A stretch of 64,000 nt of DNA from an uncultured Erysipelotrichaceae bacterium (GTDB taxonomy: Bacteria > Bacillota_I > Bacilli_A > RF39 > UBA660): assembly GCA_902801525.1 (NCBI GenBank), contig CADCIN010000002.1, forward strand, positions 12,323 through 76,322. The letters run 5' to 3'. A program made the translations under genes and the position numbers. The stretch's first letter is position 1; every line of letters begins with the position of its first letter. Of this stretch, positions 13,407 through 16,815 are shown in pieces. The notes below the pieces were generated by a model. It searched no databases, was not told the DNA's origin, and saw only the letters and a list, made by a program, of their open reading frames with translations.

Positions 13407-15065
13407 GTGATAAAATATATGTATGGTTCAATTTCAACTTTGTTATCTATATATAGACCTGAGGAAATAGCAAAATATATAAGATTGTCTGAAGAAGATA
13501 AAAATAAAAAAGGTGGAATAATTGATGAATCTGAATCAATAACTAATCAAAGATTGATTCTAAATCAATTTATAGATATAAGAGGAAATCAGGGGTGTTT
13601 ATGTAAAGAATTTGTAGATGATGGTAAATCCGGAACTAACTTTGATAGACCAGGATGGAAAAATTTATTAGATGAAGTAGAAAATGGTACTATAAAAGTA
13701 ATTATAACTAAAAATCTATCAAGATTAGGAAGAAATAATTATGAATGTAGTTACTATATGGACTGTTATTTTCCAGATGTGGGAATTAGATTTATGACAG
13801 TTCAAGAAGATGTTGATACACTAGACCTATATAAAAGTAGTAATGATTATGCAGGAATAACAAATGTAATGAATGAGAAATATTCAAGAGACTTGTCAAA
13901 AAACATAAAAAATTCAAAAAGAGTTCGGCAAGAAAATGGAGAATATATTGGTGGTAATAATACCCCATTTGGATATTATCGAGATCCTACAGATAAACAT
14001 CATTTACTAATAAATGATGTTGAAGCTGTAATTATAAGAATGATTTTTGAAAAATTTACTGAATTAAAAACTCAAGGAGCATTAAAAGAATATCTATTTA
14101 ACAACAAAATATCAACACCTTCTCAGTTTAGACATTATAAAATTCAATCAAAGATACCATATAGATGGGATTCAAGAACATTACATGATATACTAACAAA
14201 CGAAGTTTATATTGGTCATATGGTTCAACATAAATGGGAGAAAAAGAATTTTAGAAGAAAAAAATTATCAAGAGTACCAAGTGAGCAGTGGATTAAAAAA
14301 GAAAATAAACATGATGCGATAATTACGATTGAACAATTTAACTGGGTTCAAGAATTATTAAAATGTGCTCCAAAAAAGTCAAAATTTAACGAACGCGAAT
14401 TATTAGAAGGTATGATGTATTGTCATGAATGTGGACATGCTTTAACTATAAATAGTAAAACTAAACACAAAGGAAAAGATGGAAAAATATATAAGCAATA
14501 TTATTTAATATGTAGCTATTATAAGAAACATAAAAAGGCAAAGGTATGTGAAAGTCATTCATGTAATTATTTTGAATTTGAAAAGTTTGTATTGGAATAT
14601 TTAAATAATATATGTAAAAACTATGTTGATATTATTAAATGCAAAAGTTTAGCAAAAGAGAAAATTTCGAAAATTGATGATAAAAAGCGAAGATTAGAGA
14701 ACAGCATAGAATCATTAGGAAAAGAAATTAAATCGATTGAAGAAAAAATTGAAAGAGCATATATGGATAGACTAGATAATAAAATATCCATTGATATTTA
14801 TAAAAATATATCTTCAAAACTAATTGAAGATAAAGAAAATATTGAAAAGCAATATAATGAGTTAAAGGAAACATATAATGAATTCATGTCAAAGAATTCA
14901 GATGAACGATTAATAGAGGCAGAAGAAGTAGCAGAAGAATTTATTAAAAGTAGAAAAAAGGTTTCAAGAGATTTAATTGTAAAAATAATTGATAAGATAG
15001 AATTTACAAAAGATAAACAAATATTAATTTATGTTAAAATGAAACAATTGGAATATTTAAACTGA
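13407..15065 (+). CDS. large serine recombinase (integrase of the element)
   Basis: N-terminal resolvase-type motif AKYIRLSEEDK...SITNQR, with DDGKSG and NLSRLGRN. A Cys-rich zinc-ribbon region (CHECGH...CSYY...C) and a C-terminal coiled coil. It lies at the junction with the truncated valS. Confidence 0.85.
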   Translation: MIKYMYGSISTLLSIYRPEEIAKYIRLSEEDKNKKGGIIDESESITNQRLILNQFIDIRGNQGCLCKEFVDDGKSGTNFDRPGWKNLLDEVENGTIKVIITKNLSRLGRNNYECSYYMDCYFPDVGIRFMTVQEDVDTLDLYKSSNDYAGITNVMNEKYSRDLSKNIKNSKRVRQENGEYIGGNNTPFGYYRDPTDKHHLLINDVEAVIIRMIFEKFTELKTQGALKEYLFNNKISTPSQFRHYKIQSKIPYRWDSRTLHDILTNEVYIGHMVQHKWEKKNFRRKKLSRVPSEQWIKKENKHDAIITIEQFNWVQELLKCAPKKSKFNERELLEGMMYCHECGHALTINSKTKHKGKDGKIYKQYYLICSYYKKHKKAKVCESHSCNYFEFEKFVLEYLNNICKNYVDIIKCKSLAKEKISKIDDKKRRLENSIESLGKEIKSIEEKIERAYMDRLDNKISIDIYKNISSKLIEDKENIEKQYNELKETYNEFMSKNSDERLIEAEEVAEEFIKSRKKVSRDLIVKIIDKIEFTKDKQILIYVKMKQLEYLN

Positions 15066-16815
15066 TAAGGATTATGGTCATACGGGGTGGGCGAAAATTA
15101 CCCCAGCACATGATCCTAACGACTTTGAAGTTGGAAACAGACATAATTTAGAAAGAATAGTTATCATGAATGATGATGCTACAATGAATGAAAATGTTCC
15201 AAAAAAATATCAAGGAATGACTAGAGAAAAATGTCGTGAAGAGCTTCTAAAAGATTTAGAAAAAGAAGACTTATTACTTGAGGTTGAACCACTAGTTCAT
15301 GAAGTTGGGCACTCAGAAAGAACAGGTGTAATGGTTGAACCAATGATTAAAAAACAATGGTTTGTTAAAATGAGACCACTTGCTGATAATGTATTAGAAA
15401 ATCAAAAAGATACAAAGACAAAAGTTCATTTTGTACCATCATCATATGAAAAAACAATGAATCACTGGATGGAAATAACATATGATTGGTGTATTTCTAG
15501 ACAGTTATGGTGGGGACATAGAATTCCAGCATGGTATAAAGATGATAAGATCTATGTAGGAATGGAAGCACCAAAGGAAGAAGGATGGAAACAAGATGAA
15601 GATGTATTAGATACATGGTTCTCAAGTGCATTATGGCCATTCGCAACATTAGGTTGGCCAGATAATACAGATTTATTAAATAGATATTATCCAAATAATA
15701 CATTAGTAACTGGATATGATATAATTCCGTTCTGGGTAAATAGAATGACATTTCAAGGAGAAAGGCTTCTTGGTAAAAGACCATTTGAACACTGTTTAAT
15801 TCACGGACTAATTCGTGATAAACAAGGAAGAAAATTCTCAAAATCATTAGGAAATGGAATAGATCCATTTGATATGGTAAAAGAATATGGTGCAGATGCA
15901 CTAAGATATTATCTAGCAACAGATGTATCATCAGGAACAGATATGAGATTTGATGAAGATAAAATTAAAGCAACATGGAACTTTATTAATAAACTTTGGA
16001 ATGCATCAAGATTTACTTTAATGAATATCTCTGATTTAAAAGAAATTAAATTAGATAACTTGAAAAATGAAGATAAGTGGATATTAACAAAATATGAAAA
16101 TACAATACATACAGTTAAAAAATTCATGGATAAATTTGGATTTAACAATGCAGGAGCAGCTATCTATGATTTCACATGGAATTACTTCTGTGATTACTAT
16201 ATTGAAATGGCCAAATATTCAATTGATGATGAAACAACTAAATCAATATTATGTTTCATATTGTCAGGTATTTTAAAAATGCTTCATCCATTCATGCCAT
16301 TCGTAACTGAAGAAATTTATAATATGCTTCCAGTAAAAGATGAAGAATCGATTATGATTTCCGAATATCCAAAACATCAAAAGAAATATATATTTGAAGA
16401 AGAAGAAAAAGCAGTAGATGACGCAGTTGAATTTATTAAATCATTTAGAAATGTAAAAGCTGAAAATAATATGACAAAAGATTTAAAAGTTATGTTTGAT
16501 ACAGAAGACGATAATGAATTAATTGTTAAATTATTAAGATTAGATGACAACATAGTAAAAGAACCAACTGGTGCTAAAGCATATAAAGTATTCTCAAATA
16601 GAATAAAAGCGACAATATTCTTTGATAAAATTGAATCAGAAGCAGATAAAAAATTAAAAGAAGCACAAATAGAAACATTAAAAACTTCTATTGCAAGAAG
16701 AGAAAAATTATTATCTAATGAAAATTATGTAAATAAAGCACCAAGCAACATAGTTGAAAAGGATAAGAAAAAACTAGAAGAAGAAAAGAAAAAACTAGAA
16801 GAATTAACTAAATAA
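15064..16815 (+). pseudogene. valS: valyl-tRNA synthetase, 3' portion only (N-terminal catalytic part with HIGH motif absent; gene split by element insertion)
   Basis: The in-frame translation from 15064 reads [29 protein letters not shown] (the CP1 editing-domain TPAHD motif). Downstream are KFSKSLGN (KMSKS), the anticodon-binding region and the C-terminal coiled coil. The frame is closed by a TAA at 15058-15060. Confidence 0.85.

Follow-up and report, generated by a model that had tools for sequence, protein, structure and literature searches.

The serine recombinase and the interrupted valS gene

A 64,000-nt stretch of contig CADCIN010000002.1 from an uncultured Erysipelotrichaceae bacterium (the window, whose positions serve as coordinates; L-numbered contigs are comparison loci) contains the right-hand part of a mobile element that lies inside valS, the gene for valyl-tRNA synthetase (ValRS). 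The window has a G+C content of approximately 25%, carries nearly all of its large open reading frames (ORFs) on the + strand and contains no tRNA genes. The element occupies positions 1..15095 (+), its right-hand 15.1 kb, and identity with the host sequence of the element-free contigs L098-L102 and L001 begins at 15094. Its left attachment site (attL), a complete element-borne valS (valS2), a RepA-like gene and parA lie outside the window.

A large serine recombinase (LSR) gene is located at 13407..15065 (+), where an ORF of 552 aa (548 aa in public gene calls, which start at 13419) ends in a TGA at 15063-15065. Precomputed Pfam annotation assigns the Resolvase (PF00239), Recombinase (PF07508) and Zn_ribbon_recom (PF13408) domains to the product, and its N-terminus, YIRLSEED, fits the Y-x-R-x-S catalytic-serine motif as read from the sequence. 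Models of XisF, CcrB and CcrC produced weak, sub-threshold matches. The valS frame is closed by a TAA at 15058-15060, is open from 15061 to 16815 (+) and is host-derived from 15094, with its first ATG at 15166; this is the orphaned 3' two-thirds of the host gene. The 549-aa product from that ATG (the C-fragment) aligns with positions 290-857 only of the 860 positions of model NF004349 and scores 595.5 bits, below the cutoff of 704, and is therefore a fragment. Its first start codon lies 24 codons beyond the break, such that the invariant ITPAHD is lost, and no Shine-Dalgarno sequence was found upstream of it. Neither the HIGH-bearing 5' part of valS nor a second valS is present in the window. 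An earlier interpretation of this DNA made without database searches (the sequence-only reading) had described the end of the recombinase gene at 15063-15065, the TAA at 15058-15060 followed by the C-terminal two-thirds of ValRS, and a missing HIGH-containing N-terminal third, and all of these agree with the domain and model matches. It had also held that at least 15 kb to the left of the junction is an integrated element whose other end lies beyond the window; host sequence indeed resumes only at 15094, and attL and valS2 were found on other contigs.

An exact-protein look-up of the C-fragment retrieved L001, which lacks the element and matches window positions 15094..20710 at 99.96% identity, and because this identity starts at 15094 the junction was placed at 15093|15094. 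Matches of the valS 5' part to GTDB species representatives did not exceed 82% identity and were all from uncultured gut or rumen metagenome-assembled genomes (MAGs) labelled "Bacilli/Tenericutes/Mollicutes/Erysipelotrichaceae", which were read as an RF39-like lineage. Approximately 70 of the matched loci carry an intact valS of roughly 845 aa, and the motif G[TS]GxVKITP[AGS][HS]D is kept in all of them, save for P[AGS][HS] variants in a few. The cluster of the L001 N-terminal protein at ≥90% identity contains ten intact ValRS proteins of 844 aa, which were taken to be from the same species. Five same-species contigs (L098-L102) possess an intact 844-aa valS and are 99.8-99.96% identical to the host flank of the window. 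From 15094 onwards this flank (4.7 kb, C-fragment included) differs from the intact allele of L098 at 2/4722 nt, and the host valS 3' fragment shows no decay.

L001 contains a 5-bp tandem duplication of AAAAT at 2118-2127 (equivalent to window position 15094), exactly at the crossover. The duplication frameshifts valS into ORFs of 294 and 549 aa, and no valS2 is present in the 7.7 kb of this contig. Aberrant recombinase action may have left it as a scar, the host valS may be decaying in a cell whose element is located elsewhere, or the assembly may be in error.

Attachment sites and the point of crossover

The att sites were read directly from contigs with and without the element. The empty site, attB, reads ...GGAACTGGAGTAGTT AA AATTACCCCAGCACATGATCC... 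in L098-L102, and the left junction, attL, reads ...GGAACTGGAGTAGTT AA TGTCAAACCCATGTGGCCACAATC... in L095-L097. At the right junction (attR), the window shows the element half-site, or P arm, at 15067..15093 (+), which is the same in the window, L082 and L083 despite their differing host flanks. It is followed by the crossover dinucleotide AA at 15094..15095 (+) and by the B' arm at 15096..15122 (+), which consists of host codons for ITPAHDPND and is identical to attB in L098-L102. Immediately around the crossover the sites are GTAGTT AA AATTACC (attB), GTAGTT AA TGTCAAACC (attL) and GGGCG AA AATTACC (attR), with AA as the only bases common to the three. In all, attB was seen in five same-species contigs, attL in three (L095-L097) and attR in the window, L082 and L083, and the AA crossover recurs in three other element classes. 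Since no more than the 2-bp AA is shared between att sites, the insertion is attributed to a serine recombinase and not to a transposase. A transposon with a 5-bp target duplication, as the repeated AAAAT of L001 might imply, was considered and rejected: AAAAT is present as a single copy in the five same-species contigs, and attL ends in GTTAA, which leaves only 2 bp shared. Taken together, the domain architecture of the recombinase, the 2-bp core, the hybrid att sites and the empty sites identify an LSR integrative element.

Translated in the valS frame, the P arm gives a pseudo-ValRS sequence, KDYGHTGWA. It is the source of the GHTGWAK junction residues, which the sequence-only reading had taken for a hybrid att site, correctly in that the P arm and host B' arm together make up attR. 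That reading had also proposed strains lacking the element as the means of defining attB, and L098-L102 served this role. The attP site was reconstructed as GATTATGGTCATACGGGGTGGGCG-AA-TGTCAAACCCATGTGGCCACAATC and attB as GAAAAAGGAACTGGAGTAGTT-AA-AATTACCCCAGCACATGATCC. When the arms are compared as inverted repeats, 16/27 positions match in attP, against 7.4 expected (shuffle p ~0.0003), and 14/27 in attB (shuffle p ~0.004). The attB target is palindrome-like, CTGGnGTAnTT-AA-AAnTACnCCAG, and consists of the codons of the ValRS editing motif GTGxVK|ITPAHD; conservation of this editing-site motif would explain the availability of attB across many hosts. In a circular form of the element, attP would fall in the ~110-bp spacer that separates the stop codon of the recombinase gene from the start codon of valS2.

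The left end carries a complete valS

The host valS 5' part comprises 277 codons and is continued by element sequence in P0364, a 292-aa N-fragment that is encoded by L095-L097 and belongs to the same cluster as the L001 N-terminal protein. Its tail reads ...GTGVV|NVKPMWPQSKNIVTRNNLAFC and stops 15 foreign codons past the crossover, and its score of 427.5 bits is likewise under the NF004349 cutoff of 704. A complete valS2 of 845 aa, oriented like the host valS, begins 81 nt inward of attL after an AAGGAGG Shine-Dalgarno sequence, and it adjoins attL in L095-L097, L104 and L105. The product matches NF004349 over the full model length at 1074.7 bits (cutoff 704), is of bacterial type and is 80% identical to the host ValRS. 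A gene for a 269-aa RepA-like HTH_36 protein and then a ParA gene lie 3' of valS2. A second valS copy had been one of the ways in which the sequence-only reading allowed for the splitting of an essential gene, and it exists in a form not foreseen there, carried by the element itself just inside attL.

Exact copies of the valS2, RepA-like, N-fragment, recombinase, C-fragment and reverse transcriptase proteins and of a 168-aa protein each have a longest contig of 105,751 bp, which is probably the source of the window. A further contig, L103 (17,831 bp), is 91% identical to window positions 169..9849 and unites valS2, the RepA-like gene, the genes of the diversity-generating retroelement (DGR) and its VWA-domain target, and the operon downstream of them. 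L104, from a 158,943-bp contig, contains host sequence, the N-fragment, valS2 and genes for a 263-aa protein, ParA, ParB, pilin/sortase, SSB, helix-turn-helix (HTH) and NikA/MobC-like proteins. On the basis of these linked contigs and the shared 105,751-bp contig, the probable order of the window element is attL, valS2, rep/par, cargo (DGR and surface-protein/sortase operon), LSR and attR. Its size is at least ~19 kb, given that 3.7 kb of L095 from attL do not overlap the 15.1 kb in the window, and the 105,751-bp contig sets an upper bound of ~55 kb. A tblastx comparison of left-end with right-end loci, which did not overlap, revealed no shared genes.

The valS2 gene is at least 90% identical to the native chromosomal valS of an RF39-like MAG, GCA_017511275.1 (L112 6001-8541 compared with L095 1701-4238), which points to a likely donor lineage of the rescue gene. 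At the att codons the native L112 gene reads KGTGVVKITPSHD, whereas nearly all element-borne copies read KATGIVKITPSHD. The resulting motif, ATGIV versus GTGVV, has altered B-arm codons and lacks a glycine shared by all of the related RF39 ValRS proteins examined (~70 loci), the closest native homologue included. This change is compatible with selection against self-targeting, although it is not proof of it: local divergence at the att codons of valS2 (4/28 residues) is not significantly above the gene average, and P0396, with an element-type N-terminus, retains GTGCV.

Expression context of valS2

The host valS is preceded by a T-box leader and a 147-aa ORF (orf147). The leader matches RF00230 at 114.1 bits (gathering cutoff 93; L001 640-831), and its specifier, as placed by alignment position, would be GUA (Val). 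The conserved orf147 (L001 880-1323) overlaps the valS start and, owing to its location between the Val T-box and valS, would be co-regulated with ValRS by valine availability. Neither a terminator-like nor a promoter-like site was found between the crossover and the valS2 start, and a terminator-like hairpin lies directly 3' of valS2 (L095 4249-4272). With no terminator before the gene and one right after it, expression of valS2 probably depends on the promoter and Val T-box of the host valS, and the arrangement looks like a transcriptional insertion in the host valS operon.

Mobility and recurrence

Element and host sequences diverge to different degrees on either side of the junctions. Over 11.3 kb of element, L083 matches the window at 99.0% identity, compared with only 81.7% in the valS flank next to it; between L095 and L104 the element side is 87% and the host side 74% identical. 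As judged from these identities, the same element has moved between species.

Recurrence was assessed on 40 N-terminal valS matches fetched from a homologue search, mostly of ~270-310 aa. Of these fragments, which represent many RF39 species, 35 of the 40 end at the same codon, and at least nine different element-derived tail types are found among them. Three tail classes, A-C, were inspected (L015/L019/L026, L086 and L087/L088), and all have the AA crossover. In each of the three an unrelated ValRS of 806 aa and PRK13208 type (L015 10911-13331; L086 10911-13334; L087 10912-13332) begins no more than ~30 nt from the stop codon of the fragment. This enzyme is archaeal-type, scoring 993.8 bits against NF009687 (cutoff 738), and shares 29-30% identity with the host ValRS. 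Over 120 clusters of it (≥86% identity) exist in public metagenomes, and the element family may accordingly be very widespread.

More distant recombinases also adjoin gene fragments. P0256, a recombinase ~52% identical to that of the window, lies directly beside valS 3' fragments in two distinct spore-forming hosts, and P0341, a recombinase 44% identical, abuts a cotE fragment instead. Since a 44%-identical recombinase is found next to cotE, the valS-targeting clade is related to the classical intervening elements of sporulation genes. In L106-L110, which are from spore-forming hosts, the recombinase gene at 6001-7662 is followed by a 132-aa ORF with a CotE domain (cotE fragment 7691-8089), and these loci probably represent a skin-type sporulation-gene intervening element that targets cotE.

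Cargo and neighbouring genes

The left part of the window carries the DGR that the sequence-only reading had assigned to the element, and it is complete. Its target is a 1282-aa VWA-domain surface protein (79..3927, +; Pfam VWA/VWA_2), whose C-terminus contains the variable repeat (VR; 3732-3851, +). The VR pairs with a 120-nt template repeat (TR; 4164..4283, +) that is 80% identical and lies 432 nt downstream, and all 24 mismatches are at TR adenines. The TR is followed by an accessory ORF of 137 aa (4428-4841) and the gene for a 498-aa reverse transcriptase (4825..6321, +; PF00078 RVT_1). Pfam scanning of the cargo operon that follows (6254..11393, +) identified a Flg_new/DUF11/SHIRT-repeat surface protein, an S26 signal peptidase, unknown proteins and a sortase. 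At the 5' end of the VWA ORF (ATG at 79) is a (GACA)n microsatellite of ~17 units (~95-178), which is preceded by GACAGAAA variants. Independent Logan assemblies break at this repeat, which numbers only 2-3 units in L103, and it resembles a slipped-strand switch for phase variation of the surface protein that the DGR diversifies.

No capsid, terminase or tail genes were found in the window's 15 kb or in L095, L103 and L104; these loci carry instead a RepA-like HTH protein, ParAB, SSB and a NikA/MobC-like protein. The element is plasmid-like rather than phage-like. Scans of IMG/VR with the P' arm, attP and the recombinase gave neither matches nor relatives, and the element is therefore not a catalogued virus.

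On the host side, the region 3' of valS (17736-22034) contains paralogous genes of ~195 aa at 17736-18323, 19473-20063, 20076-20672 and 21447-22034. They share 66-72% DNA identity with each other, their products have hydrophobic N-termini like those of pilins or pseudopilins, and a DUF5305 gene is interspersed among them.

A model for the integration and its alternatives

The window is most probably the attR and right 15 kb of a plasmid-like LSR element that splits the host valS and supplies a complete valS2, a reading given a probability of roughly 0.85. The LSR would join attP to attB in the palindromic codons of GTGxVK|ITPAHD, with crossover at AA, and integration would cut the host valS, presumably a single-copy and essential gene, leaving 277 codons on the 5' side and, on the 3' side, a 549-aa ORF from the first ATG. 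Lethality would be avoided by the complete valS2 that the element brings as the first gene inside attL. This gene would become the distal member of an operon made up of the valS promoter, the Val T-box, orf147, the truncated valS and valS2, and would thereby inherit valine-responsive control. Precise excision would be expected to restore the host valS, and the arrangement may give the element both a near-universal target and protection against loss by deletion. The sequences support this reading through the att sites, the crossover, the same-species empty sites, the position and completeness of valS2, the mobility between species and the recurrence.

Several observations weigh in the other direction. 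L001 is free of the element and has its valS frameshifted at the crossover by the 5-bp duplication. No attP (circular) junction or match to the P' arm was found in IMG/VR or JGI metagenome contigs, and no recombination directionality factor was recognised. The activity and expression of valS2 are deduced from sequence only. The left end of the window's element is drawn from identical proteins that share the 105,751-bp contig and from independent contigs of the element, and the search for valS copies covered the window and the linked contigs.

A resistance or immunity role for valS2 is one alternative: it would primarily be an inhibitor- or toxin-insensitive ValRS, with the insertion removing the sensitive enzyme and compensation being secondary. 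Mobile aminoacyl-tRNA synthetase (aaRS) genes that confer inhibitor resistance are known, such as mupA/ileS2, and one element lineage carries the very divergent archaeal-type 806-aa ValRS, 29-30% identical to that of the host. The valS2 of the window-type element, however, encodes a ValRS usual for RF39 and has at least 90% identity with another species' native valS, no gene for a ValRS-directed toxin was seen in the cargo, and two unrelated ValRS types in the same slot fit simple complementation, all of which makes this explanation unlikely. Frequent excision, by which a broken valS would be restored when needed as in the regulated gene integrity of skin/sigK and SPbeta/spsM, had been among the options of the sequence-only reading and is very unlikely. 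The proximity of 44%-identical recombinases to a fragment of the sporulation gene cotE favours it, and the undecayed host fragments are compatible with reversibility, but valS is needed continuously for translation, the attP junction that excision leaves was not found in IMG/VR or JGI data, and an element that carries a full replacement does not require excision.

The option that the two parts function as a split enzyme, with the 292-aa N-fragment and 549-aa C-fragment assembling into an active ValRS and no other valS being needed, has similarly lost its footing. Both fragments are undecayed, L001 also shows two ORFs, and the break is in the CP1 insertion, where the natural split LeuRS of Aquifex is known. 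Nevertheless, every left junction examined has a complete valS2 next to attL, the last 15 residues of the N-fragment are foreign, the C-fragment starts 24 codons past the break without a Shine-Dalgarno sequence and loses ITPAHD, and conspecifics are intact, with ten 844-aa same-species proteins in the 90%-identity cluster; a split enzyme is accordingly rated as highly improbable. Scarcely credible is an artefact, that is, a chimeric assembly at ~15065, which the sequence-only reading had named as a finding that would overturn it, or a 3' fragment that is a duplicated relic beside an intact valS elsewhere. Although the assemblies concerned are of metagenome type, attR is the same in three independent ones (the window, L082 and L083, the latter two from Logan) and attL is the same in five, and the host flank, fragment included, differs by 2/4722 nt from the intact L098 allele and keeps its native downstream gene context.

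A broader and more tentative proposal, which may well not hold, is that the LSR elements described here are selfish elements of a natural "disrupt-and-rescue" kind, through which aaRS genes are displaced directly. The host's only valS would be broken and the supplied copy would have altered att codons, making imprecise loss lethal. Once the idle host fragments decay, a ValRS gained by horizontal transfer would take the place of the host enzyme for good; in one lineage this substitute is archaeal-type and only ~30% identical to the ValRS of the host. If true, disrupt-and-rescue would explain, by a concrete mechanism, the horizontal replacement of aaRS genes that has long been noted, and it suggests a testable route for both this replacement and element addiction.

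An LSR element of the kind favoured here would break the working rule that integrases rebuild their target via a short attP segment or split only dispensable genes: an essential translation gene is split, and a whole gene is substituted and wired into a host regulatory leader. A palindromic stretch that encodes an invariant active-site motif would be a route to a near-universal attB, a point of relevance when serine integrases and landing sites are chosen for the engineering of uncultured gut Firmicutes. The arrangement is also an annotation trap, in that valS will appear in many gut MAGs as two fragments accompanied by an "extra" valS.

Comparison with known systems

In the literature, no description was found of a serine-recombinase element that inserts in the middle of valS or another aaRS gene and brings a full replacement; the design seems to be undescribed, and it recurs in many gut Firmicutes. 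It resembles skin/sigK, SPbeta/spsM, the fdxN element (XisF) and A118/comK in having an LSR at one element end and in a mid-gene insertion with a 2-bp crossover and without target duplication, such that the host gene is restored only by precise excision. The targets of those elements are dispensable or developmental and no substitute is carried, whereas here an essential aaRS gene is interrupted and a whole replacement accompanies the element. The full valS2 beside attL thus sets it apart from the regulated gene integrity of the skin/SPbeta type.

As a rule, attP carries a replacement segment that keeps the target functional, and regulated gene integrity provides the exceptions (PMC10111431). 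The valS element is like the phages of tRNA genes, e14 and phage 21 in icd, SXT in prfC and SCCmec in rlmH in that compensating sequence lies directly beside the crossover. It is unlike them in that the icd, prfC, rlmH and tRNA types rebuild the gene by a short in-frame fusion and the valS element supplies a separate complete gene with its own start codon. The recombinant 5' ORF has 292 aa and the 3' part is orphaned, which is not the outcome of an attP-borne gene-end replacement. Helper-embedded phage-inducible chromosomal islands (PICIs) interrupt a prophage late gene of which they carry a "backup intact copy" (PMC10111431). The combination of an interrupted gene with a carried intact homologue that may replace it is the same; the PICIs, however, use tyrosine integrases and interrupt a prophage late gene, with a redundancy described as not essential, whereas the gene interrupted here is cellular and essential.

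Synthetic Cleave-and-Rescue (ClvR) selfish elements inactivate an essential gene and supply a version that is not a target, and a thyA-bearing insertion in thyX of Clostridioides difficile follows a similar logic of inactivation and supply. ClvR elements are engineered and nuclease-based; here the disruption would be a reversible site-specific recombination, and drive-like behaviour is hypothetical. Naturally split aaRS enzymes of the Aquifex LeuRS type are a different case, given that same-species sequences carry valS as one 844-aa gene. Finally, the element shares with the plasmid-borne mupA/ileS2 the presence of a complete aaRS gene on a mobile element, but mupA/ileS2 is added to an intact host gene and selected by an inhibitor, whereas integration of the valS element destroys the host gene for which it carries the substitute.

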